Counted from the stretch's first letter, positions 14,564-52,258 are shown. The stretch is 64,000 bases of DNA from Alphaproteobacteria bacterium (GCA_031426355.1 JANPLD010000068.1:71477-135476); one strand, 5' to 3'. Notes: generated by a model not told the origin, from the sequence alone. A program made the numbers and translations.

Positions 14564-17243
14564 AAGCTGCTTTTTTAAGGTGCTGCTTGGCTTTGATGGT
14601 TGCTTGCGCTGCTGCCAGGCGCGCTATAGGAACGCGGAATGGTGAGCATGAAACATAATTGAGTCCAACGTTATGACAGAACTCAATAGATGGCGGGTTG
14701 CCGCCATGTTCACCGCAGATACCAAGCTTGATATCCTTGCGCGTTTTCCTGCCCCTTTCAACTGCAAGCTCAATTAACTGGCCAACGCCTTCTACATCTA
14801 AAACCGCGAAGGGGTCTTTCTCGAATAATCCCCTTTCAACATATTGCGGGATGAATGAACCGGAATCATCACGGGAAATTCCGAGAGTTGTTTGAGTTAA
14901 ATCATTTGTTCCGAAGCTGAAGAATTCTGCATGTTCTGCGATCTTATCAGCAACTAAAGCGGCTCTAGGAAGCTCTATCATAGTGCCAACGAGGTATTCG
15001 ATCTTAGATTTTTTCTCAGCGAAAACTTTCTGCGCAACTTCATCGATCAGGTTTTTCAGTATCTCTAATTCCCTTGCGTTTAGAACAAGCGGTATCATTA
15101 TTTCAGGTAATACTTTTTTACCTTTTTTAGCAGTTTCAATTGCTGCTTCGAAAATAGCGCGGGCCTGCATCTCGTAAAGCTCAGGGTAAGTTATACCAAG
15201 CCTGCAACCACGGTGGCCTAACATCGGGTTAGATTCATGAAGTTCTTTTGCGCGCGTTTTGATTTTCTCAACTGCAATTCCTGAAGCTTTTGAAACTTCG
15301 GCGAATTCAGAATCAGTATGTGGAAGGAATTCATGAAGAGGTGGATCTAGCAAGCGGATCGTTACTGGCAGACCTTCCATGATTTCAAATATATCTTCAA
15401 AATCTTTACGCTGGTATGGGAGAAGTTTAGTAATGGCTTTCCTTCTTTCATTTTCGTCATTAGCAACGATCATTTCGCGAATAGCGATGATACGGTCAGC
15501 ATCAAAGAACATATGCTCTGTTCTGCAAAGGCCAATGCCTTCTGCGCCGAATTTACGGGCTGTTAGACAATCTTGTGGAGTTTCAGCATTTGTGCGTACT
15601 TTGAGGGTTCTGGTCTCATCAGCCCATTTCATCATGGTTTCGAACTCTGCTGACAATTCAGGATCAATCGTTGGCACCCTGCCTAAAATAACTTCGCCTG
15701 TGCTGCCATCGATCGTGATTATATCACCTTCATTGATGGTTTTATTACCGACAGTGAATTTTTTTGCCTTGTAATCAATAGTTACCTGACCTGCTCCAGT
15801 AACGCATGGCCTGCCCATACCGCGGGCAACAACTGCCGCGTGGGATGTCATACCGCCGCGTGAAGTTAATATGCCTCTGGCAGCATTCATTCCGTGGATA
15901 TCTTCAGGGCTGGTTTCAGCGCGAACTAAAATTACCGCTTCTTCTTTTTTAGCATGTTCTTCAGCATCATTAGCGTTGAACACAACTTTACCGCATGCCG
16001 CTCCCGGGGAAGCAGGAAGACCTTTTGCGATAACATCTTTTTTCGCTTTAGGATCAAGCGTCGGGTGAAGTAATTTATCAAGTTCATCAGGGGATACGCG
16101 GAGGATAGCTTCATCTTTAGAGATCAAACCTTCAGCAACCATATCAACTGCAATTTTGATAGAGGCTTTTGATGTACGTTTGCCATTACGCGTCTGAAGC
16201 ATCCAGAGTTTTCCGTCTTCAACGGTAAATTCGATATCCTGCATGTCGCGGTAATGTTTCTCAAGTTTTTTGTATATGTCAACAAGCTGCGCGTAAACTT
16301 CAGGAAGGGATTCTTCCATCGCAGGGAGTTTGCTTTTCTGGGAATTTTTACCGGCGATAGTGATCTGCTGGGGAGTACGGATACCTGCAACAACATCTTC
16401 ACCTTGGGCGTTAATTAAATATTCACCGTAAAATGCTTTTTCGCCCGTTGACGGGTTACGAGTGAATGCAACGCCTGTCGCGCTGTTCTCACCAGTATTA
16501 CCGAACACCATGGATTGCACGTTAACTGCAGTTCCCCAGCTTTCTGGGATGTCATACATTCTGCGGTAAGTTATCGCGCGGTGGTTCATCCAGCTTGAGA
16601 ATACTGCGCCAACTGCGCCCCATAACTGTTCTTTAACATCCTGCGGGAATGGTTTTCCTGTTTCTTCCTGAACCTTCTTTTTAAATCTCAGAACGAGGTC
16701 TTTCAGATCATCAGCGTTAAGTTCAGTATCAAGGAATATGCCTTTATCCTGTTTTTTAAGATCAAGAATATCTTCAAATAAGTGCCTTTCAACTTCAAGG
16801 ACGACATCAGAATACATCTGGATGAAGCGGCGGTATGAATCATATGCGAAACGAGGGTTGCCACTTTTGATCGCTAAACCTTCAACGGTTTCATCATTAA
16901 GACCAAGGTTTAATATCGTATCCATCATCCCCGGCATTGAAGCGCGGGCGCCTGAACGGACAGAAACAAGAAGCGGATTGGTTTTATCACCAAATTTCTT
17001 ACCGATAGTTTTTTCAATTGCAGCTATACCTTCAACAACCTGCTTTTCAAGGGCGTCAGGGTATTTGCGGTCATTTTTATAAAATTCCGTACATACTTCA
17101 CTTGTGATAGTGAAACCGGGAGGAACAGGCAGGCCAACCCTGCACATTTCAGCAAGGTTTGCACCTTTACCGCCGAGCAGGTTTTTCATTGAACCTTCGC
17201 CCTCAGCATTACCGTTACCGAACGTATATACCCATTTAGTCAT
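14562..17243 (-). CDS. ppdK: Pyruvate, phosphate dikinase
   Basis: 893 aa. Contains an N-terminal GGKGANLAEM ATP-grasp segment, the phosphohistidine segment RGGMTSHAAVVARGMG, and the C-terminal PEP-utilising motifs GTNDLTQ and GICGEHGG. Confidence 0.97.
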   Translation of the reverse strand: MTKWVYTFGNGNAEGEGSMKNLLGGKGANLAEMCRVGLPVPPGFTITSEVCTEFYKNDRKYPDALEKQVVEGIAAIEKTIGKKFGDKTNPLLVSVRSGARASMPGMMDTILNLGLNDETVEGLAIKSGNPRFAYDSYRRFIQMYSDVVLEVERHLFEDILDLKKQDKGIFLDTELNADDLKDLVLRFKKKVQEETGKPFPQDVKEQLWGAVGAVFSSWMNHRAITYRRMYDIPESWGTAVNVQSMVFGNTGENSATGVAFTRNPSTGEKAFYGEYLINAQGEDVVAGIRTPQQITIAGKNSQKSKLPAMEESLPEVYAQLVDIYKKLEKHYRDMQDIEFTVEDGKLWMLQTRNGKRTSKASIKIAVDMVAEGLISKDEAILRVSPDELDKLLHPTLDPKAKKDVIAKGLPASPGAACGKVVFNANDAEEHAKKEEAVILVRAETSPEDIHGMNAARGILTSRGGMTSHAAVVARGMGRPCVTGAGQVTIDYKAKKFTVGNKTINEGDIITIDGSTGEVILGRVPTIDPELSAEFETMMKWADETRTLKVRTNAETPQDCLTARKFGAEGIGLCRTEHMFFDADRIIAIREMIVANDENERRKAITKLLPYQRKDFEDIFEIMEGLPVTIRLLDPPLHEFLPHTDSEFAEVSKASGIAVEKIKTRAKELHESNPMLGHRGCRLGITYPELYEMQARAIFEAAIETAKKGKKVLPEIMIPLVLNARELEILKNLIDEVAQKVFAEKKSKIEYLVGTMIELPRAALVADKIAEHAEFFSFGTNDLTQTTLGISRDDSGSFIPQYVERGLFEKDPFAVLDVEGVGQLIELAVERGRKTRKDIKLGICGEHGGNPPSIEFCHNVGLNYVSCSPFRVPIARLAAAQATIKAKQHLKKAA

Positions 17244-17373
17244 GGTGGATAATCCTTTATGTTGGAATTTGCCGCCCTTTTATTGGATTTCTGCCAATAT
17301 TTCAATAAGAAAGTTGGCCTTGTGAAATAGTGTAATATATGGTATTATTAGTATTATAAATAATATACGTATT

Positions 17374-17592
17374 ATGACTTTATCAGTAAAATTAGGCGAT
17401 GATATTGAGAATAGATTAAGTGAACTCGCCGATATAACGGGCCGTACTAAAACCTATTATATAAAAAAAGCGGTGCTAGAAATGCTTGAGGACATGGAAG
17501 ATATTTATATTACAGAAAAAAGAATTGAAAATAAAAGTGAAAAAATCTGGTCAATGAAAGAAATAGAGGCTGAACTTGACCTGGCGCATTGA
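17374..17592 (+). CDS. relB: Ribbon-helix-helix (RelB/CopG-type) antitoxin
   Basis: 72 aa. An N-terminal beta-strand plus helices (LSVKLGDDIENRLSELADITGRTKTYYIKKAVLEMLE). Overlaps the downstream RelE-like ORF by 17 nt. Confidence 0.75.
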   Translation: MTLSVKLGDDIENRLSELADITGRTKTYYIKKAVLEMLEDMEDIYITEKRIENKSEKIWSMKEIEAELDLAH

Positions 17593-17845
17593 ATGGAAAG
17601 AGAGTGCAAGAAAAGAGCTTAGAAAACTGAATAAACAAGCTCAGTCACAGATAATTTCCTATTTAAAAGAATCTATAGAAAAATCTGATAATCCTAAAAA
17701 TTTTGGCAAGCCACTTGTAGGAAATTTAAAAGGATTGTGGAGATATAGAATTGGTGATTATCGGGCAGTGTGCCAAATACAGGATGAAAAAATTACTGTT
17801 TTAGTTGTAAGAATCGCCCATAGAAAAGAGGTTTATGATAACTAG
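17576..17845 (+). CDS. relE: RelE/ParE-family type II toxin
   Basis: 89 aa with a TTG start. Contains WRIEWKESARKELRKL...GLWRYRIGDYRAVCQIQDEKITVLVVRIAHRKEVY, which matches the RelE pattern (…YRLVYQV.D..v.v.vi.vg.R..vY). Confidence 0.8.
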   Translation: MTWRIEWKESARKELRKLNKQAQSQIISYLKESIEKSDNPKNFGKPLVGNLKGLWRYRIGDYRAVCQIQDEKITVLVVRIAHRKEVYDN

Positions 17846-38439: not shown

Positions 38440-40821
38440 TCATAATAAAACCTCTGTAATTGCCACCTCCCCCCGCCCGACTTTATCAGACATCTGGTAT
38501 ATTCTGGCGGTAAAGTTAGTTGCTAGAGAACCAAAGTCAGAACTCTGCATACCTTCAGTATAATTAAAACTTGGAGAGGTTATTTTCTCAGTCCTTTTTA
38601 AAGTAGAAGCATCGAAAATGTCTATTTCATATTCTTCCTTAGTTTCAAAAACAGGGATCTCTACACTTGAAGAAAAAGAGATATTACCGCGTGATCTTCT
38701 CAGCCATTGTATATTGATGTCATCATCCATTTCCCTTTCGGCAGAAATATGGACAGGTGAATATGGCTTTAATGAATTTCCAGAAAAGTTAATTTCTTTT
38801 GCGGTAACATCATCTGCACTTTTACCAAAGGTTACAGCTTTTATCCAGATAGTTTGGCCGATCTGTGAAACAGGCATCTCTATCTTTAAAACATTCTCAT
38901 CAAGCAGGATGAACCTGCTGCCTGCAGGATGAGTTTCACCTGCGTAATTTTCTGTACCCTGACGGCCGCGATATAAGTGGCTAAGCGTATATTTATTTAA
39001 TTCTGTCTGGTTGATATTTTTAAACTGAAAATTTTCATTTCCTATCAAAGCTAAATTTCCAAATGATTGTAGATTATCTTCTGTTAGTGATTCTAAAGTT
39101 CCACCGATCAAATTTATATTCAGCTGATTAATTTTATCAATAACAGGGGAGCTGAATTGTAACAGTTCAGTTTCAATAACTCCCATTGTTGCAGGGGAAA
39201 CAATATCAGTTATTTTCTGAAAACCTTCTGTTGCGGAAATATTGCTTACATATATTGCGCAACCATTCCAGTTAGAAGAAGTACCGCAGACAGCCAGATG
39301 CAGATATGCTTTATCTATTGAAGTTTCATTTGGCAAATGATGTGTATCAATTATCTCAAAATAAGTATCGGAGATAGGTTCCAGATTTTCACTGTTATAA
39401 TCAGTCGTAAGTTCCTCATTGGCGGAAGAATAAAAATCATTTTCAAATCTTATTGCAGATATTTTTATCTTGCCTTGCTGCGTGAGTGAGGAAATTATTT
39501 TCAGCTTATAGGTCTCATCATTTTTAATGATGTTCACTATATCGCCTGCTTCAATATATAAATATTCAGATGGCAGTGAGAATTCTATCTTCTGAGTTAT
39601 TGCTTCCTCTTCAAGAAGTAAAGTTTGTGCTATTTTTTCAGCATATGATCTGTTCAATAATAATGGCAGATTAATCTCAATACCGGATGAATTATTTTTA
39701 TCTTCGCGCGAGATGTCAAAATTTCCGACAAGGTAATTATTATTTTCCGATATATAATTAAGGCTGAGGTTTGAAGTAATATTCAGGCTAGATGCATTTT
39801 CAAACAGCATGGTCTCATTATTCTTTTCGAAAATTAATCTGCTAAAATCTATATTTATTTCTTCAGTGTTTTCACTCTGCCTTGGGAAGAATTTCACTTT
39901 ATCACTTTCAACAAAATCAAAAAAGTAACCTGATTGTAATGTTCGCAGGGCTTCTAAAGCTGTGATAGCACCCGAGAGATTATATCCGCTGACAAGTTTA
40001 TTAACATTATTTATTTCTGGAGTTTCAATACCGGCTTTTTTGCAGAGGTCAGAAATTATATTCTTAAGTTCAGCTACCCCTAATTTTCCATTTATCCAAT
40101 GGCCGCGGCTCCATAAATTTCCATCACCCCAGACATTTTTCATATCAGGGTAAAATGGATAGGACCTCGCATCATAAGCCCAAATAAATTTCTGCTCCAC
40201 CATTTCAGAATTCTGCCATTTTGCCAAGGTTCCCTGAAGCGCCGTTCTTTGCGCCAGAAAATCAATATATCCTTTGGATAAATATGGCAGGTTGCCATCA
40301 ACTGAATCAGGATTATAAAAAACATTTGGCTGATTGGCGCAGCCATCAACTGAAGGAAAACCAAACTCAGTGAACCATATTTTTTTACTTTGTGGTACAA
40401 ACTCTGTTTGTTCTGAATCAGGATTTGTATGAGTATTATTCCACCAATATTCAATATTTTTCCAAGCATCTTGAGGTGTTAAATCTGCTTTTACAGTGCG
40501 TTCTTCATCAGTGTAATACCAGTCATAACCTTCACCATTTTCCCAGCCGTCTATAATTTCTTGCTTATCGTATATTCCATTCTGCTCCCTGTCAGTGAGT
40601 GGGAAATATGCATCGATACCGATGAAATCTATATTGTCTGATGCCCATAGAGGATCCATATTATACCAGCCATTTGTGGAATGGTATTCACTCCAATCCG
40701 CTGCGTAACCTATTTTGGTTTCAGACCCCATTATTGTTTTAACTTCCTCTACAAGGGCTATCAGTTCGTCCACTGCCGAGAAACTATCATCAGCATCCTG
40801 AATTTGTGTCAGGCCTTTCAT
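38440..40821 (-). CDS. GTA host-specificity/tail-fibre protein (RcGTA g15-like), C-terminal fragment; the frame is actually open up to the frameshift at 40910..40915
   Basis: The 793-aa ORF begins inside the conserved …VDAFIIGSEMKGLTQI…TKIGYAADWSEY… TIM-barrel-like region of g15-type proteins. Upstream in the same frame, FFTKTNGYNNFILHYADLVKDKVDAFIIGSE is also readable. Confidence 0.8.
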   Translation of the reverse strand: MKGLTQIQDADDSFSAVDELIALVEEVKTIMGSETKIGYAADWSEYHSTNGWYNMDPLWASDNIDFIGIDAYFPLTDREQNGIYDKQEIIDGWENGEGYDWYYTDEERTVKADLTPQDAWKNIEYWWNNTHTNPDSEQTEFVPQSKKIWFTEFGFPSVDGCANQPNVFYNPDSVDGNLPYLSKGYIDFLAQRTALQGTLAKWQNSEMVEQKFIWAYDARSYPFYPDMKNVWGDGNLWSRGHWINGKLGVAELKNIISDLCKKAGIETPEINNVNKLVSGYNLSGAITALEALRTLQSGYFFDFVESDKVKFFPRQSENTEEINIDFSRLIFEKNNETMLFENASSLNITSNLSLNYISENNNYLVGNFDISREDKNNSSGIEINLPLLLNRSYAEKIAQTLLLEEEAITQKIEFSLPSEYLYIEAGDIVNIIKNDETYKLKIISSLTQQGKIKISAIRFENDFYSSANEELTTDYNSENLEPISDTYFEIIDTHHLPNETSIDKAYLHLAVCGTSSNWNGCAIYVSNISATEGFQKITDIVSPATMGVIETELLQFSSPVIDKINQLNINLIGGTLESLTEDNLQSFGNLALIGNENFQFKNINQTELNKYTLSHLYRGRQGTENYAGETHPAGSRFILLDENVLKIEMPVSQIGQTIWIKAVTFGKSADDVTAKEINFSGNSLKPYSPVHISAEREMDDDINIQWLRRSRGNISFSSSVEIPVFETKEEYEIDIFDASTLKRTEKITSPSFNYTEGMQSSDFGSLATNFTARIYQMSDKVGRGEVAITEVLL

Positions 40822-40856
40822 TTCTGAGCCGATGATAAATGCATCTACCTTATCTT

Positions 40857-42146
40857 TTACCAGATCAGCATAATGAAGAATAAAATTATTATACCCGTTG
40901 GTTTTAGTGAAAAAATATGAACTTCAGATGAATCGCAGGTTATATATCCGCGCCATGGCTTATCTATAATATCCATAAAAATCATCGGATAGAATTTTAC
41001 TTTTAGTCCTCTGTTTGTTGCTTCTTCTATAAATCTTAAAATACTTTCATCACTTGGTGTGCCGCCATAAATAGGGCGTTCATCTGCGTAAGTTACCAGC
41101 GCTGCAGTGTCGCGGTTATATCCAGCAACATGCCATTCAGTGGGAAAAGTTTTCGTCTGGGTTTTATATTCTACGCGTGGCGCAACAGTGCAAACATTTG
41201 CATCAAGTGAATTGCCAAACCAGCAGCAAACCAGACTTACATATTCAATATTTGGGAAATTATTTTGTAAATTATCCAAGGCAACTAATGCATCTGCTTT
41301 ACCGCTGGCATTATTCTGATTGATAAATTTTTCTTCACCGGTCTGGTGCCAGATACCTAAAATTTCCACCCCATCTTTTTTACTATGGGTTAAAGTATCA
41401 TAAACAAATTCGCCGCTTCCCGGTATAATATTCACTGCGGTAACATTATTTTCTAGATTGTTTTCATCTCCTGATATTTTTAAATTGCGGATTATCTCAA
41501 AAGTGAAATTCGGTATTCTGCCCCTAAATTCAGTTAGTTCAAAATCTTCAAAAACTATATAGGCAAGGCCACGATATGCAGGGGTTTTATTTTCACCTTC
41601 ATAAGATTCTATTACAGGGTCTGGAAGTTGGGTTTCATCCCCTTTATAGATACTGTAAGAAGCGCAGTAATCATTGGGATTGATCAGATTTGAATCTGCC
41701 CAGACACGGTCGACATAGTCAATTTCACCTTCGCATAATGCAATGGCGATATTTACGAAATAACGGAAATTAGTTTCGGTTTTCCTTTCTACTTTCGCGC
41801 TGCTGCCTTTACCGCCCTGATTGACAGGTGCTCTTTCTTCGACGATCCTGACATTGGTTGACCAGACGATATTACCGGCTATCCTTGTTTTGCCGTAAAT
41901 TATAGGGATCGCGTCACCATAAGAAGATTTCTGTATTGAGAAATCAGTTAGTTTTTTTCCTCGGATTATATTCTTTTCATTCTCACCGAAAAGGTTTGAA
42001 TCAATTGAATTGCCGAGCCTTGTGGCTCCGGCATTAAGCCCTTCTTTAACCTGACCCTCAACAATATTACCGAATACCGGGATCTGCGAAAGACCAAATG
42101 ATTCTACAAAACTATTTGATGCACTTGTTAATACTGTTGTTGTCAT
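40857..42146 (-). CDS. GTA host-specificity/tail-fibre protein (RcGTA g15-like), N-terminal fragment
   Basis: …YGKTRIAGNIVW…FRYFVNIAIALCEGEIDYVDRVWADSNLI…YKGDETQLPDPVIESYEG…PAYRGLAYIVFEDFELTEFRGRIPNFTFEI… matches the conserved N-terminus of alphaproteobacterial GTA g15 proteins. The last 30 or so residues are out-of-frame nonsense. Confidence 0.8.
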   Translation of the reverse strand: MTTTVLTSASNSFVESFGLSQIPVFGNIVEGQVKEGLNAGATRLGNSIDSNLFGENEKNIIRGKKLTDFSIQKSSYGDAIPIIYGKTRIAGNIVWSTNVRIVEERAPVNQGGKGSSAKVERKTETNFRYFVNIAIALCEGEIDYVDRVWADSNLINPNDYCASYSIYKGDETQLPDPVIESYEGENKTPAYRGLAYIVFEDFELTEFRGRIPNFTFEIIRNLKISGDENNLENNVTAVNIIPGSGEFVYDTLTHSKKDGVEILGIWHQTGEEKFINQNNASGKADALVALDNLQNNFPNIEYVSLVCCWFGNSLDANVCTVAPRVEYKTQTKTFPTEWHVAGYNRDTAALVTYADERPIYGGTPSDESILRFIEEATNRGLKVKFYPMIFMDIIDKPWRGYITCDSSEVHIFSLKPTGIIILFFIMLIW

Positions 42147-42158
42147 AACTTCATTAAT

Positions 42159-42584
42159 TTAGTTTTTGATTCTATAAATTTTTACTATCTTTGATCTCCA
42201 CACATCATTAAGGCGATGTTTCACCGCTTTGCCAATCTGGCTGTAACAGTGAATGAGTGCTAGGTTTTCATTATTATATTTCGTGATGAAGCCAGTATGC
42301 TGAGGGAATTTTCCGAACTTCATCAGAAATATATCACCTTCTTGCATCTTATTTTTTTCAATTGAAAGAAGCGAAGCTTCCATTTTTTCCTGCAGTAAAA
42401 ATGTTGAGGGGATACGGGAATATCCTGCTTCATCATTTTGCGTGAGGTCAACTTCGCAATTTTTCAGGACAGTTAGTACAAACCCTATGCAATCAACACC
42501 TATAGCAATATTCCTGCCTTGATGGACAAAGGGAACTCCGATCAGTTTTTCAGCTTCTGAGATTATTTTATTTTGTAAATCCAT
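42159..42584 (-). CDS. NlpC/P60-family cell-wall peptidase (RcGTA g14-like)
   Basis: 141 aa. …GVPFVHQGRNIAIGVDCIGFVL… provides the catalytic Cys context, followed by …HTGFI…LIHCY. Position between the g13- and g15-like genes. Confidence 0.8.
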   Translation of the reverse strand: MDLQNKIISEAEKLIGVPFVHQGRNIAIGVDCIGFVLTVLKNCEVDLTQNDEAGYSRIPSTFLLQEKMEASLLSIEKNKMQEGDIFLMKFGKFPQHTGFITKYNNENLALIHCYSQIGKAVKHRLNDVWRSKIVKIYRIKN

Positions 42585-42586
42585 AT

Positions 42587-43414
42587 CTATACTTTTAATA
42601 TCCTGTCTGTTCCCGGGATATGAGGTTCCCCACGAAAATTAATTATGTTGTCGAATTTGGAGATACAGGTTTGTGAATTTTTATCGCAGCCTACAGAGAC
42701 CTGATATTCATCACCTGTTTCAATATCTTTTATAAGAGAAGTAAGAAGTTTGAATTTGCCTTCTGTGAAATTTGCGATCTCTCTTATAGAACCAGAGTTC
42801 GCGCCGCTTAAGAATGTAATCACCCCTTTTGAGAAATAATTTTTCTCTTCAGTTCGCGCGGTATCAATGAATTCCATTTTATTTATTGTGAATGTAACTG
42901 CTCCTGAGAATGTATGGTCAGCAATATTTATTCCGCATTTGCTATCGCCAAATTTTGCTCTGCAATTAGGTGAGAAATTCTGTGATATTCTGTTTTTAAG
43001 TAATGAAGAATATCCTGATATCTCAATAAATAATTTATCGTCATCATATCTTATTTTTGAAATAAAACCTTTTTTGAGAATTAATTTCCCATCTTCAGGA
43101 GATTCATAATTCAGTAAAAATATTTCTATATCGGCAGAATCTAATTTACTTGATTCAACTTCAGTTTTTGAGATGATATCATCTTCAATAACACTTAAGA
43201 TACTTTCTTTTTTATTAACTGAAAACCCTGAATAATCAGCAAAGATATCAGATGACAGATAAGGTTTATAAATATTGCCGTCATATTGGAATTCCTTATC
43301 GAAACTGGTTAAGGCGATCACTGATCCATCCTTACAGGTAATAAGAATGAATTTTGCTAAGGTTGTTACTTCTTTTGCAAGATGCCCTTTTAAATTTTCG
43401 GAAATGTTTTTCAT
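42587..43414 (-). CDS. DUF2163 / BR0599-type phage protein (RcGTA g13-like hub protein)
   Basis: 275 aa. Contains …TLAKFILITCKDGSVIALTSFDKEFQYDGNIYKP… and the C-terminal CDKNSQTCISKFDNIINFRGEPHIPG motif typical of this family. Confidence 0.78.
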   Translation of the reverse strand: MKNISENLKGHLAKEVTTLAKFILITCKDGSVIALTSFDKEFQYDGNIYKPYLSSDIFADYSGFSVNKKESILSVIEDDIISKTEVESSKLDSADIEIFLLNYESPEDGKLILKKGFISKIRYDDDKLFIEISGYSSLLKNRISQNFSPNCRAKFGDSKCGINIADHTFSGAVTFTINKMEFIDTARTEEKNYFSKGVITFLSGANSGSIREIANFTEGKFKLLTSLIKDIETGDEYQVSVGCDKNSQTCISKFDNIINFRGEPHIPGTDRILKV

Positions 43415-44013
43415 ATTTTTACCTCTATCAATTCAATTTTTGACATTGAAGCTTTGGAGAAATTTTCTGTTGAGTATGAAAGGATATCTGAGTTGAAACG
43501 CGCCGGAACATCGAATTCGAAATCTGCTTTTACCACCACAGAATTTGCAGGAGGACTTGAAAAAGTAATAACTCCATTATTATTCCCGAGGGAAAATCCC
43601 GAAGCCTGCTTAATATTATCAAGATAGACCTATATGCTCTGCGGCACCGGTTTCGTAATTTTTCTCTCAATCTCATAAATCTCATCTCCGTATTTTTTAA
43701 TAAGCTGGAATTGTGTTTTTAAATTATTGCCTGTTCCGAGTATTTGGCCTTTCGCCTGAAAATCTGCCCAGTCTTTGAAGCGGAAGCCATAGGCCATACC
43801 CCGGCGTGCGATAAAGAAATCGCGGATCTTTTCTGCCTGAGCGGTAGAAATATTTTTGAAATCGATCTCATATTTCGCGCGAGGGATTGAATTATTTATA
43901 TTCCGCTTCTCGTGGCCGCTCGTCATTAAATTAACGGAAGTTGAGAATTCCTGACCACCTTGCGCTTTAAAAGAAATATCTGCGGGGAACCTTGCTTCGT
44001 GAAAATCTGTCAT
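43411..44013 (-). pseudogene. DUF2460 protein (RcGTA g12-like) interrupted by an in-frame TAG at 43630..43632
   Basis: The track ORF 43630..44013 (FHEARFPADISF…GGQEF…SGHEKRN…RRGMAYGFRFKDWADF…KPVPQSI*) stops at TAG. The same frame continues for 72 codons (VYLDN…GVITFSSPPANSVVVKADFEFDVPARFNSDIL…) to a TGA that overlaps the g13-like ATG. Together this is about 200 aa, the normal length of the family. Confidence 0.8.
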
Positions 44014-44109
44014 TGGGAATCTCCTATAAAATTATTCTGCGATAGAGATTATAAACTTCCTTTGATGCCGGATTTATATCGGCCTTGCCCCTATTCTCAA
44101 AACGATAGG

Positions 44110-44577
44110 CTATCTGGTAAAAAGCGCCGTTTTGATGATCTGTGGAACATTATCTGCTTCCTCACCATATCCGGCAAAGTAATCTATGTAGATAAACTTT
44201 GCAGAAGGAAGAACATCAAAAAAGAGGAAATATTTTGCCGGAGAAAGATAATAATTCGAAGCAGAAAATGCTGTTTCATCACCATTTTTATCTATCAATT
44301 TTACCGAGTCGATAGAACTTACCGGACCCATCGGCAAATCAACTTCCATTTCAGTTGAACTGCAATATGCAAGGCGCCATTTCTGTGTGATGAGAGAAGC
44401 CTTCATATATTTTTCAGCTTCGATACGAGCTGATTTTATAAGATCCTCAATAGTACTATTTTCTGCATCGCCGCTGATGCGTAAGAATTCCTTTACTTCA
44501 TCTGCTGTTACCGGTTCAATTTCCGGTTCAGTTAATTTTATCAATTCCGGTTTCCTGCTTTTAAAAATTCCGAACAT
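44110..44577 (-). CDS. gp6-type head-tail connector/adaptor (RcGTA g6-like), C-terminus displaced by a frameshift
   Basis: …PVTADEVKEFLRISGDAENSTIEDLIKSARIEAEKYMKASLITQKW… is the gp6-like N-terminal signature. The expected C-terminal …YRFENRGKADINPASKEVYNLYRRIIL* is readable in the -1 frame down to TAG 44024..44026. Confidence 0.75.
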   Translation of the reverse strand: MFGIFKSRKPELIKLTEPEIEPVTADEVKEFLRISGDAENSTIEDLIKSARIEAEKYMKASLITQKWRLAYCSSTEMEVDLPMGPVSSIDSVKLIDKNGDETAFSASNYYLSPAKYFLFFDVLPSAKFIYIDYFAGYGEEADNVPQIIKTALFTR

Positions 44578-44657
44578 GATGCTCCTTTATTTGTATGTTT
44601 AAAATCCTTCTATTTTTAAGATTATGTGCGAAAAAATATGTGCGGAAGGGTGAAAAT

Positions 44658-44694
44658 TCATGTGCCACACCATGAATAAGCATGGCACATGAAG
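44658..44694 (-). terminator. Hairpin/terminator immediately downstream of the capsid gene
   Basis: TTCATGTGCC (44658..44667) pairs with GGCACATGAA (44685..44694), with an inner CCATG/CATGG extension. On the minus strand it is followed by TTTTCACCC. Confidence 0.55.
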
Positions 44695-44701
44695 TAAAAA
44701 A

Positions 44702-45904
44702 CTAACTAGCTGCCAGTTTTAATAATTTGATCGCTTCAAAATTAACCACACCACCACCTACACGTTTAGTCGTGTAGAATTTCACGAATGGTTTTTCAGT
44801 GTATGGATCGCGGAGGATGCGGATACCTGTCCTATCAACGATCTGATATGCACGTTTAAAATCTGCAACGGCAACTGAAAGTGAGTTGGTTGCGGGAACC
44901 GGCATATCGGAAGCCTTAACCACTGGAACGCCGAGTAATGTATCAGGCGTTCCTGCTGTTAGGCCGGGCTGCCAGAGATATTGATTCGTAGTTGCTTCTT
45001 TCAGTAAACGAACTGCCTGAACTGTTGCTCTGTTCATCATGAAGGCGTTATTTGCATATTCATCTTTTAAAGCATAATAGAGTTTGATGAGTGAATCGGA
45101 AGTTACCGCGCCTGCTGAAAGTGAGCTGATCTGTTCAATCTGCCCGGCACCGGTTCCTGCGGTATAGGCAAGTATACCTTTTGGTTTGCCCGAACCATTA
45201 CCTGAAACAAAGGCAGTGTTTTCTTTGCGTGAGAAAACTTCCACCAGTTTTTCAGTAAGCCAGCTTTCAATATCAATTGACGAATCATCAATTAATTTTT
45301 GCGTTGCCTTAGGCTGTGCCACAAGCTCATATGCAGTGATAGAAAGCTTGCCGATCTGCGGTGTATCGGAATCAGAAACGGCAGCGGATTCTGAAGATGC
45401 CCAGTCTGCTCCAGCTTCGTCGCTATCTTCTATTATTTCGAAAACGTCAGATGAAAGTTGCGTAACATTTGCAACCTGCCTCATTGGTGAGCTTTCATAG
45501 ATGATGCGTGCAAGCTGCGCGCTCATTTGCGGTGTAACCAGATATCCGCCGTCTGCATCAGTGCCAACTGAAAGGGCTTTCTTCTCGAGGAAAGAAAGAT
45601 CACCTTCAACGCCTTTACGAACGTAATTGATGAAAGCTGCTTTATGTTCGCCTGCAATATTTGATGAAACATCGCTTTTATATTCACCACCAAGTGAGGG
45701 GCGGTTCAGAACTGTCTCAACACCGTCAAGACGGTTCTTGAATTCGTCTATTACATTATTTAATTTGTTAATATGATTTGTTGTTAAAGAATCCGCAGAG
45801 CCTTTTTTCTCTATCTCCTGCAGCCTCCTTTCATTAAGTTTTTTGAAATCATCCCATGCGGAGCCGAGTTCATCAACTTTTCTTGTTATTGTAGAAATAC
45901 TCAT
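44702..45904 (-). CDS. HK97-family major capsid protein (RcGTA g5-like)
   Basis: 400 aa. An N-terminal coiled delta-like region (…VDELGSAWDDFKKLNERRLQEIEKKG…) is followed by the HK97-fold body (…GGYLVTPQMS…, …NQYLWQPGLTAGTPDTLLGVPV…). Confidence 0.9.
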   Translation of the reverse strand: MSISTITRKVDELGSAWDDFKKLNERRLQEIEKKGSADSLTTNHINKLNNVIDEFKNRLDGVETVLNRPSLGGEYKSDVSSNIAGEHKAAFINYVRKGVEGDLSFLEKKALSVGTDADGGYLVTPQMSAQLARIIYESSPMRQVANVTQLSSDVFEIIEDSDEAGADWASSESAAVSDSDTPQIGKLSITAYELVAQPKATQKLIDDSSIDIESWLTEKLVEVFSRKENTAFVSGNGSGKPKGILAYTAGTGAGQIEQISSLSAGAVTSDSLIKLYYALKDEYANNAFMMNRATVQAVRLLKEATTNQYLWQPGLTAGTPDTLLGVPVVKASDMPVPATNSLSVAVADFKRAYQIVDRTGIRILRDPYTEKPFVKFYTTKRVGGGVVNFEAIKLLKLAAS

Positions 45905-45912
45905 AATTTTCC

Positions 45913-46422
45913 TTATTTTAAAATGTTAATTGTCTTGTCCAGTAAGGAGAGAAGCTCTGCTTCAGGCTCATCTGATTTTACACTGAGGATCTTTGCGGAA
46001 TCATTGGCCGGGAAAGTGACCAGACTTATTTCGAATAATTCTGCTTTTTTGATTACGCGAACTTCGGTTTCATCATCAATTTCAAAATCAGTGACCCTGA
46101 AACCAATGCTTAAGCCTTTCAGCGCACCGCTTTTGAGGAGTGCGTAAGCTTCGCGAGCGCGTTCGATCTCAAGTAGAAGCTGGCCTTCAACGTACAGTCC
46201 GTTGTCATCTTCTTCTATGTGAGTAAAAATCCCGATCGGTTCATCTGCGCGGTGTTGCCAGAGTAATTTTATTTCCCCGGCATTTTTGGTCAGATCTGAA
46301 AAAGCACCTTCCAGAATTATATCATCGTGATTATCTATAACGCCGAATACGCTGGCGTAACCTGAGAAAAAACCCTTTTTATTAAGAGATTTTATCTCAA
46401 GGGAATAATTATAATTTTGCAT
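45913..46422 (-). CDS. HK97-family prohead protease (RcGTA g4-like)
   Basis: 169 aa. GYASVFGVIDNHDDIILEGAF…LWQHR…PIG…LSIGF…EISLVTFPAN matches the S78/U35 prohead protease pattern. Confidence 0.88.
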   Translation of the reverse strand: MQNYNYSLEIKSLNKKGFFSGYASVFGVIDNHDDIILEGAFSDLTKNAGEIKLLWQHRADEPIGIFTHIEEDDNGLYVEGQLLLEIERAREAYALLKSGALKGLSIGFRVTDFEIDDETEVRVIKKAELFEISLVTFPANDSAKILSVKSDEPEAELLSLLDKTINILK

Positions 46423-51055: not shown

Positions 51056-52258
51056 ATGAAAAAATCTAAACGATCTATCTTTTCTATATTCAAAAAATTT
51101 TCTCCTAAAAAAATAGAGAAAAAAAGTTTAAGTTCTGATCAGTATAAGACATATTTCTATGACTCGGCAAAACCTGTGTGGATGAGCCGTAATTACGGAA
51201 AATTCGCTGACGAAGGTTATATCAGGAATGTCATTGCGAATCGCTGCGCTTCAATGATAGCAAAAAATATTTCATCGATAAAAATAAAATTATTTGAGAA
51301 TAATTCCGAAAAGAAATTCGAGATAAAAAACCATCCGCTGCTTAATATTATCAGATTCCCTAACCCCGCAACTAATGGGAATCTATTCAGGGAAGCACTT
51401 TTCTCACACCGCCTTATAAGCGGCAATTCCTATATATTAGCGGTTAAGAATTCTGCCGGGATACCGCTTGAACTTTATACTCTACGTCCTGATAGAATAA
51501 GCATTACAACTGACAGATCAGGTTTTGTGACCTCATATATTTATAAAGGAACTGATAAGGAAATACGTTATTCAGTTGATAAACTGACTGGGCAATCTGA
51601 TGTTCTGCATCTTAAGAACTTCCACCCGCTTGATGATCATTTTGGACTCAGCCCTATAGAGCCTGCGGCATATTCAATTGACCAGCATAATCAGGCGGCC
51701 CAGTGGAACCAAAGTTTACTTCAGAATGGTGCGAAGCCAAGCGGCGCGCTCGTAATAAAACCGCAGAATGAAGGCGGGATGGGTAGCCTTACAGATGAGC
51801 AATACACAAGAATAAAAAGGCAGATGGAGGAGGAATTCAGCGGACATAATAATGCTGGGAAACCTATGCTGCTGGAAGGTGGCTTAGACTGGAAAGAGAT
51901 GAGCCTGTCGCCACGTGATATGGATTTTATCTCATCAAAACATAATTCTGCCCGTGAAATTGCGCTGGCATTTGGTGTGCCACCGCAACTACTCGGAATT
52001 CCAGGTGATAACACTTACAGTAATTTGATTGAGGCAAGACTTGAACTCTGGGAACAAACAATACTTCCGCTTGCAGAAGAATATATTTCCGCTCTTAACC
52101 ACTGGCTGACGCCAATGTTCAATAATGATGACCTTGAGCTTGATATAGAGAATATTCCGGCGCTTCTGCCGCGCAGGGAAAGCCTGTGGAAACGGGTAAA
52201 TGAAAGCAGTTTTATTTCAGAAGAGGAAAAAAGAAGACTGGTTGGAATGGGAGATTAG
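51056..52258 (+). CDS. HK97-family phage portal protein (RcGTA g3-like)
   Basis: 400 aa. …YIRNVIANRCASMIAKNISSIKIKLF…GNSYIL…LHLKNFHPLDDHFGLSPIEPAAYSIDQHN…NGAKPSGAL…PRDMDFI… matches the HK97-type portal pattern. Confidence 0.9.
   Translation: MKKSKRSIFSIFKKFSPKKIEKKSLSSDQYKTYFYDSAKPVWMSRNYGKFADEGYIRNVIANRCASMIAKNISSIKIKLFENNSEKKFEIKNHPLLNIIRFPNPATNGNLFREALFSHRLISGNSYILAVKNSAGIPLELYTLRPDRISITTDRSGFVTSYIYKGTDKEIRYSVDKLTGQSDVLHLKNFHPLDDHFGLSPIEPAAYSIDQHNQAAQWNQSLLQNGAKPSGALVIKPQNEGGMGSLTDEQYTRIKRQMEEEFSGHNNAGKPMLLEGGLDWKEMSLSPRDMDFISSKHNSAREIALAFGVPPQLLGIPGDNTYSNLIEARLELWEQTILPLAEEYISALNHWLTPMFNNDDLELDIENIPALLPRRESLWKRVNESSFISEEEKRRLVGMGD

Follow-up and report, generated by a model that had tools for sequence, protein, structure and literature searches.

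Cryo-EM of RcGTA has shown that its g12 protein, named after T5 pb9, forms a hexameric ring where the tail tube ends and the baseplate begins (PMC7296036). The baseplate docks on the N-terminus, the long loops and the C-terminal Arg209 of this protein, and Arg209 contacts both the hub and the megatron proteins (PMC7296036). Sets of GTA genes that have lost parts of this machinery are common in Rickettsiales and Holosporaceae, where head genes persist alongside tail genes that are absent or have become pseudogenes (George et al. 2022, PMC9254644). Tail genes also show a higher dN/dS than head genes (George et al. 2022, PMC9254644). Earlier accounts of eroded GTA sets are those of Lang and Beatty (2007) and Shakya et al. 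(2017), as cited in PMC9254644.

The locus analysed here lies in a 64-kb stretch of alphaproteobacterial DNA (the window, by which the whole stretch is meant) with about 38% GC. Its RecA is 87% identical to that of MAGs labelled 'Rickettsiales bacterium', and the host is an uncultured Rickettsiales-like alphaproteobacterium. Seven contiguous genes in the window are GTA-like, namely g4, g5, g6 and g12 to g15, and three of them are interrupted (Table 1). The g3-like portal gene lies on the opposite strand about 4.6 kb away, with recA, alaS and one further ORF between it and the module.

Table 1. Coordinates of the GTA-like genes in the window and of the features of the interrupted g12 gene, counted from the first letter of the window
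Feature	Coordinates	Strand	State and product	Family matches
g15-like megatron	38440..42146	-	split into 429-aa and 793-aa ORFs	
g14-like NlpC/P60 peptidase	42159..42584	-	intact, 141 aa	Pfam NLPC_P60 1-102 of 105
g13-like baseplate hub	42587..43414	-	intact, 275 aa	PF09931 1-160 of 160; PF09356 1-80 of 80; TIGR02218, 182 bits
ATGA overlap	43411..43414	-	original g12 TGA (43413..43411) and g13 ATG (43414..43412)	
In-frame C-terminal g12 remnant	43414..43629	-	72 sense codons	
Premature TAG stop	43630..43632	-	g12 codon 128, context AGC AUA UAG GUC	
g12-like distal tail protein gene, N-terminal part	43630..44013	-	open ORF, ATG at 44013, 127 aa	
g6-like head-tail connector	44025..44577	-	frameshifted; open ORF of 155 aa	
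g5-like major capsid	44702..45904	-	intact, 400 aa	Pfam Phage_capsid 1-279 of 280
g4-like prohead protease	45913..46422	-	intact, 169 aa	Pfam Peptidase_S78
g3-like portal	51056..52258	+	intact, 400 aa	Phage_portal (Pfam) 4-320 of 321; TIGR01537, 228 bits

RcGTA is among the closest described systems. When the g12 gene of the window is translated through its stop, residues 4-200 align with residues 3-210 of RcGTA Rcc01695 (PDB 6TBA, 6TEB and 6TEH; E = 5e-36), and the R. capsulatus locus was itself recovered among the homologues at 39% identity (L079). The downstream neighbours are also the same, with a hub, an NlpC/P60 peptidase and a megatron following in turn, and the order g12-g13-g14-g15 is common to most of 80 related loci. 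The Rhodobacter protein differs in carrying an insertion of about nine residues that the g12 of the window lacks. The g12 of the window is also interrupted by a TAG at codon 128, and its product has 127 aa. The two clusters also differ in layout. In the window g6 lies directly upstream of g12 in place of g7 to g11, a junction shared with the contig of a sister genome (L002) and with one other locus (L004). No homologues of g1, g2 or g7 to g11 were found in the 64-kb window, and its unannotated ORFs gave no relevant PHROG match; these genes may lie elsewhere in the genome. The complete RcGTA large cluster runs contiguously from g1 to g15 and includes terminase, tail tube and tape measure genes, and the window has no such contiguous set.

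The siphophage distal tail proteins (Dit), such as T5 pb9 and that of roseophage R4C (PDB 8GTC chain G), belong to the same structural class, and the R4C 'Distal tail protein' (8GTC_G) matches residues 4-186 of the read-through translation (E = 3e-22). These are phage genes in complete tail modules, whereas the g12 of the window is chromosomal, interrupted and part of a dispersed GTA-like module. The eroded sets of Rickettsiales and Holosporaceae symbionts offer another likeness. The window, like them, keeps an intact portal, protease and capsid while tail genes are missing or pseudogenised, its GTA-like genes are scattered among housekeeping genes, and its host is low-GC and Rickettsiales-like. 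Unlike in those sets, g12 to g15 are all present and were under strong purifying selection until recently, and the lesions are at a very early stage, free of secondary decay. The interrupted g12 is a new, early-stage instance of the known pattern of GTA tail erosion, caught here in the tail and baseplate genes of a Rickettsiales-like bacterium.

The g12-like gene opens with an ATG that is preceded by an AGGAG Shine-Dalgarno motif 8 nt to its 5' side. Its ORF ends in ...ITKPVPQSI and is followed immediately by the TAG (43632..43630). Past this stop the same frame continues as VYLDNIKQASGF...ADFEFDVPARFNSD...IELIEVKI and is uninterrupted up to the TGA at 43413..43411. The remnant, which reads VYLDNIKQ...FEFDVPARF...IELIEVKI, contains the conserved FEFDVPxRF motif and the ...EVKI C-terminus of the family, and no further stops or frameshifts occur within its 72 codons. 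Its TGA overlaps the start codon of g13, and an overlap between the end of g12 and the start of g13 is also present in at least 10 related loci.

Profile searches gave the same picture. The part before the stop matches positions 1-131 of the 205 positions of Pfam DUF2460 (PF09343; 136 bits, E = 1e-39), and the part after it matches positions 134-205 (68 bits, E = 9e-19). Joined as a read-through translation of 200 aa, the two cover PF09343 from 1 to 205 of 205 with 218.8 bits (E = 7e-65). The curated cut-off of TIGR02217 ('phage distal tail protein, Rcc01695 family') is 136.65 bits. The read-through translation passes it with 187.8 bits over positions 2-209 of 210, whereas the actual 127-aa product fails with 112.1 bits over positions 2-134. 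The continuation of the frame beyond the TAG is far beyond chance, and the read-through g12 is a collinear, full-length member of the Rcc01695/DUF2460 distal tail family.

A preliminary description of this locus had ended the ORF at this TAG, after ITKPVPQSI, and both the coordinates and the sequence that it gave are correct. It had further described 72 codons in the same frame that carry the conserved C-terminus; DUF2460 positions 134-205 were indeed matched downstream of the stop. The TGA overlapping the g13 ATG was likewise found, at 43411..43414. The gene had been labelled g12-like (DUF2460) and otherwise full length, and both statements hold, with a full-length match to the solved RcGTA Rcc01695 (E = 5e-36) and read-through coverage of DUF2460 from 1 to 205 of 205.

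The TAG is probably a genuine and recent nonsense mutation in the g12 gene of an eroding RcGTA-like baseplate module. Translation would then stop at codon 128 and leave a product of 127 aa without the last 73 residues. The lost part would include the conserved FDVPxRF region as well as the basic residue at the C-terminus that, in RcGTA, contributes to docking of the baseplate. Members of the family carry R or K at the penultimate residue, the equivalent of RcGTA Arg209. By analogy with RcGTA, the truncated product is predicted to be non-functional. The early stop, which falls 216 nt short of the original one, would also abolish the translational coupling to g13 through the ATGA overlap. For the g12 gene of the window, annotation as a pseudogene is appropriate.

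Comparison with related loci showed that none of them shares the stop. A sense codon occupies g12 position 128 in all 90 related loci, which come from genomes, metagenomes and viral contigs. The residues found there are K (32 loci), R (13), T (9), V (7), A (7), Q (5), S, N and E (4 each), L (3) and I (2), and 26 of the 90 codons differ from TAG by a single base. The remnant aligns gap-free with 33 homologues in which the stop column is variable, so a substitution at this position is unremarkable. In every related locus the N- and C-parts form a single ORF with exactly one codon between them. The preliminary description had allowed that DUF2460 homologues might normally end at this position. 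This does not agree with the lengths observed, since the 120 best homologues measure 195-217 aa in all cases except the window protein.

The nearest relative is a sister genome (Logan SRR13608703) whose RecA is 99% identical to that of the window. Its g12 (P0121) is intact, has 200 aa and carries TCT (Ser) in place of the stop codon, two steps away from TAG. P0121 comes from a different sample and is the only other member of the 90%-identity cluster of the window protein. A closer relative or a second population was sought in genome representatives, JGI metagenomes and IMG/VR and by exact-protein look-up, and the one sister contig was all that these yielded. No publication that mentions either of the two run accessions was found. 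The TAG at codon 128 is specific to the lineage of the window.

Two further genes of the module, g6 and g15, are broken by frameshifts. In a DNA alignment with the sister genome, whose g6 is intact (184 aa), the g6 of the window is one base short at a poly-T run (T5 at 44119..44123). Downstream of it, 30 residues can still be read in the -1 frame, with one difference from the sister. In g15 one T has been lost from a poly-T run that is now T6 (40910..40915); it is T7 in intact AT-rich relatives (L004 and L016). The sister g15, sought by protein search, was not found. With one T restored, the g15 product reads ...EVHIFFTKTNGYNNFILHYADL... and aligns with every relative. The sequence at the junction in the repaired frame is ...EVHIFFTKTNGY..., and this junction lies in a single frame in all of the 34 related loci that cover it. 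Many g15 homologues are about 410 aa long. The suggestion that g15 is normally split at this point was rejected on the evidence of those 34 loci, each of which reads through in one frame.

The site of the g15 break is a recurrent hot spot. An unrelated lineage (L100, SRR26541452) has lost the same T independently, which creates an in-phase U UUU UUA heptamer, and the homologue P0244 reads the same shifted tail. In further g15 homologues the break falls at a different A or T run close by. The break is most simply read as a hot spot of slippage at which the T has been lost repeatedly and independently, a programmed -1 slip at such alleles being improbable.

Selection on the module was assessed against the sister genome, at a dS of 0.5-1.0. 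The dN/dS was 0.054 for g4, 0.070 for g5, 0.044 for g6, 0.047 for the N-part of g12 and 0.227 for its C-part, compared with 0.011 and 0.037 for the housekeeping genes recA and alaS, respectively. The low values in the module (0.04-0.07) indicate that purifying selection was strong during most of the period since the two lineages separated. As in the eroded sets of Rickettsiales and Holosporaceae, the head genes have a lower dN/dS than the C-part of g12. The higher value of the C-part is no indication of decay, because the ratio of C-part to N-part divergence is 3.3 for g12 and 3.1 in an intact control pair (P0005/P0006). Relaxed selection on the C-terminal remnant was considered as proof of a pseudogene and was discarded when the signal (0.23 vs 0.05) vanished against this pair. 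In a relative-rate test, changes specific to the window were weakly in excess in the C-part, and one change, V171A, lies in a nearly invariant column.

No secondary decay was seen downstream of any of the three lesions. Together with the strong selection in the past, this indicates that all three are recent. If neutral divergence since the mutation is about 0.03 or less, 72 codons would not be expected to have gained new stops or an excess of substitutions large enough to detect. With no decay expected over so short a time, the intact downstream frame fits a very recent loss and continued translation equally well.

The neck and baseplate part of the module may have been released from selection only recently, with decay just beginning, since three fresh lesions (g6, g12 and g15) lie within it. 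We infer that relaxed selection, rather than error or recoding, is the cause of the interruptions. The locus would then be a time-stamped example, in which selection of housekeeping strength lasted until very recently and was followed by three hits that show no secondary decay. The case bears on whether GTA genes in such bacteria remain functional.

Rather unlikely, though the best placed of the alternatives, is that the TAG, and perhaps both frameshifts as well, arose as errors in sequencing, assembly or consensus calling, or represent a minority allele in the MAG, with the gene being intact in the organism. All copies of the sequence go back to a single run, SRR20217183. In g6 and g15 the lesion is the loss of one base from a poly-T run, a classic type of error, and homologues derived from metagenomes often include short g15 pieces that break at homopolymers. 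Nevertheless, the NCBI contig and an independent Logan assembly, both derived from that single read set, are identical over the 12,284 bases that they share, and all three lesions are present in each. The g12 lesion, moreover, is a point substitution and not a homopolymer indel, a distinction that the preliminary description had already drawn.

The distribution of the lesions also argues against random error. Three of the seven contiguous GTA-like genes are broken, whereas about 30 non-GTA genes in the window have Pfam matches that are covered end to end; this survey of intactness rests on the Pfam-matched genes, and about 10 ORFs have no family match. The intact neighbours include nuoG, nuoH, nuoI, nuoJ, gyrB, recF, ppdK, glyS, ileS and dnaB, as well as recA, alaS, a second class I tRNA synthetase, ribD and glyA. 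Small genes, likewise intact, occupy the large intergenic gaps. Two apparently broken housekeeping genes were false alarms, as the gap upstream of glyS, where glyQ had been suspected, is filled by panD and a second small ORF, and the window ends within glyA. The rest of the coding sequence contains 362 A/T runs of at least 5 bases (140 of at least 6) and no frameshift. Random error would not select one functional module in this way. If the lesions were placed at random, the probability that all three would fall in the module, which makes up 14% of the coding sequence, is about 0.003, and their clustering points to a module-specific cause.

A second alternative is that g12 is still functional because the UAG is read through or suppressed. 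A fraction of ribosomes would decode it, with a near-cognate tRNA or with a suppressor tRNA whose gene lies outside the window, and make the full 200 aa, maybe at a level that is thereby kept low. Downstream of the stop, all 72 codons are preserved in frame as far as the ATGA overlap with g13, and they show no excess divergence relative to the intact control pair. The module was under strong purifying selection until recently, and the g6 and g15 frameshifts could in principle be bypassed by a -1 slip on the U-runs. A very recent mutation, however, would also have left the downstream frame intact. All 90 relatives lack the stop, and Ser stands at this codon in the sister.

TAG is, furthermore, an ordinary terminator in the window. 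Among 51 long ORFs, 20 end in TAG, 28 in TAA and 3 in TGA, and recA itself ends in TAG at 339 aa, within the 337-346 aa of its homologues. Reassignment of the TAG codon was rejected on these grounds. With TAG ending 39% of the long ORFs, recA included, efficient suppression would be costly. No tRNA genes, and hence no suppressor tRNA(CUA), were found in the 64-kb window, and no Rfam families were detected in it. The 131 nt around and after the TAG fold with -31.7 kcal/mol, compared with a mean of -29.7 kcal/mol for shuffled sequences (z = -0.59), no better than expected for RNA of this composition under shuffling. The UAG is followed by G, a context that is not known to favour read-through in bacteria. 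Genes that depend on programmed read-through or on a suppressor resemble the g12 of the window only in having an in-frame stop with conserved coding sequence in the same frame downstream. They differ in that the stop here is not conserved, stimulatory RNA is lacking, TAG is not reassigned and the window holds no suppressor tRNA. Translation of g12 past its stop is accordingly judged improbable.

It is very improbable that g12 works in a shortened form, as the 127-aa fragment alone, or as a two-piece protein with a re-initiated C-part. The N-terminal fragment does retain its start codon with a strong Shine-Dalgarno motif, and it comprises the portion that is best conserved in the family (dN/dS 0.047); another lineage (L101) has a 'DUF2460' gene call of 125 aa. 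Nevertheless, the earliest in-frame start after the TAG is a GTG at codon 159, 31 codons on, which has no Shine-Dalgarno motif; re-initiation there would lose 31 residues and yield a peptide of 42 aa. Neither the FDVPxRF block nor the C-terminal residue in contact with the baseplate in RcGTA is present in the 127-aa product, which scores below the TIGR02217 cut-off. The gene in L101 is a deletion chimera in which about 45 aa of g12 are fused to part of g14, and no other homologue terminates near residue 127. That DUF2460 proteins might naturally end near residue 125, as the L101 call suggested, was rejected for the same reason. The preliminary description had left three options for the stop; of these, a recent nonsense mutation is retained, whereas read-through or suppression and a two-piece protein are not favoured.

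Very improbable, finally, is that all three interruptions are tolerated or exploited by recoding, through UAG read-through in g12 and -1 slippage in g6 and g15, to give low, tunable amounts of full-length neck and baseplate proteins, with the recurrence of the T7-to-T6 change of g15 in L100 being a selected switch and not a mutational hot spot. If read-through or slippage were true, the locus would be a recoding-controlled GTA baseplate.

Erosion of GTA tail genes was also seen in other lineages. One g12 homologue (L038) has an in-frame stop at codon 6. In L101, the chimera produced by the g12-g14 deletion is accompanied by a stand-alone N-terminal piece of g15, and on the contig carrying P0244 g15 is present in three ORFs.

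The g15-like (megatron) gene of the window is interrupted by a frameshift at a poly-T run, which has six T residues here (T6) compared with seven (T7) in L004 and L016, two AT-rich relatives in which it is intact. The g15 junction was found in one frame in all 34 of the related loci that cover it. The same T was lost independently in L100, a locus of an unrelated lineage (SRR26541452; about 3725..3735). Loss of this base leaves the sequence GAT TTT TTA, which is an in-phase U UUU UUA heptamer. The same shifted-frame tail is also read by the homologous protein P0244, and further g15 homologues are broken at different A or T runs close by. The poly-T site is a hot spot at which slippage recurs, and a programmed -1 slip at the run is still conceivable.

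Frameshift sites and other features of the window
Feature	Position	Strand	Remarks
g15-like gene, frameshift site	40910..40915	minus	poly-T run, T6
g6-like head-tail connector gene	44025..44577	minus	frameshift, one base lost at the T5 run 44119..44123
VirD4/TraG-like ORF, 443 aa	13166..14497	minus	match to VirD4 model positions 141-478 of 657
Two small overlapping ORFs in a gap	17243..17842	plus	resemblance seen by eye

The g6-like gene carries a frameshift as well. In the -1 frame past the shift, 30 residues are still conserved with a single difference, and the gene of the sister genome (Logan SRR13608703) is intact, encoding 184 aa. Between g5 and g6, the sister contig L002 carries a stretch of about 1.45 kb (1781..3235) that the window lacks; the gap in the window amounts to 125 nt (44578..44701). 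Either an insertion in the sister or a deletion in the window would account for the difference. A 197-aa ORF whose N-terminus resembles a lipoprotein signal (MNFKNFIFLFSLAVLTCCG...) is included in the sister interval.

Among about 90 loci, an in-frame stop in the g12 homologue was observed outside the window only in L038, from a Rhodothalassiaceae MAG (1806..2432). As L038 is the sole other case, nonsense lesions occur in the g12 gene at a base rate of roughly 1%. The stop in L038 falls at codon 6 (MSGFH*VR...), a position otherwise occupied by a nearly invariant Glu. Of the 51 long ORFs in the window, 28 end in TAA, 20 in TAG and only three in TGA. A search of the 64 kb for tRNA genes and Rfam families found none.

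The layout of the GTA-like module in the window (38440..46422 and 51056..52258) is unusual. The g6-like gene directly adjoins g12, and g7-g11, comprising the stopper, terminator, tail tube and tape measure genes, are absent between them. This direct junction is shared by the sister contig L002 and by L004. The portal gene (51056..52258) lies on the strand opposite to g4 and is separated from it by recA, alaS and a 167-aa ORF. No terminase gene was found within the 64-kb window.

Another eroded baseplate module was observed in L101 (7011..9221 of a 146-kb contig, JGI 3300036183) and L102. The 125-aa gene call annotated as DUF2460 in L101 is a deletion chimera in which about 45 aa of g12 are joined to the C-terminal part of an NlpC/P60 (g14-like) protein. 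Neither g13 nor the C-terminal part of g15 was detectable in this locus. The N-terminal piece of g15 stands alone there as a 406-aa ORF, followed by a lysozyme-like ORF.

Two features of the window lie outside the module. The VirD4/TraG-like ORF scores far below the curated VirD4 cut-off, and the space upstream of it is too small for the absent N-terminal, membrane-spanning part; it is possibly the remnant of a truncated type IV coupling protein. As judged by eye, the overlapping ORF pair looks like a putative RelB/ParD-type antitoxin followed by a putative RelE/ParE-type toxin.
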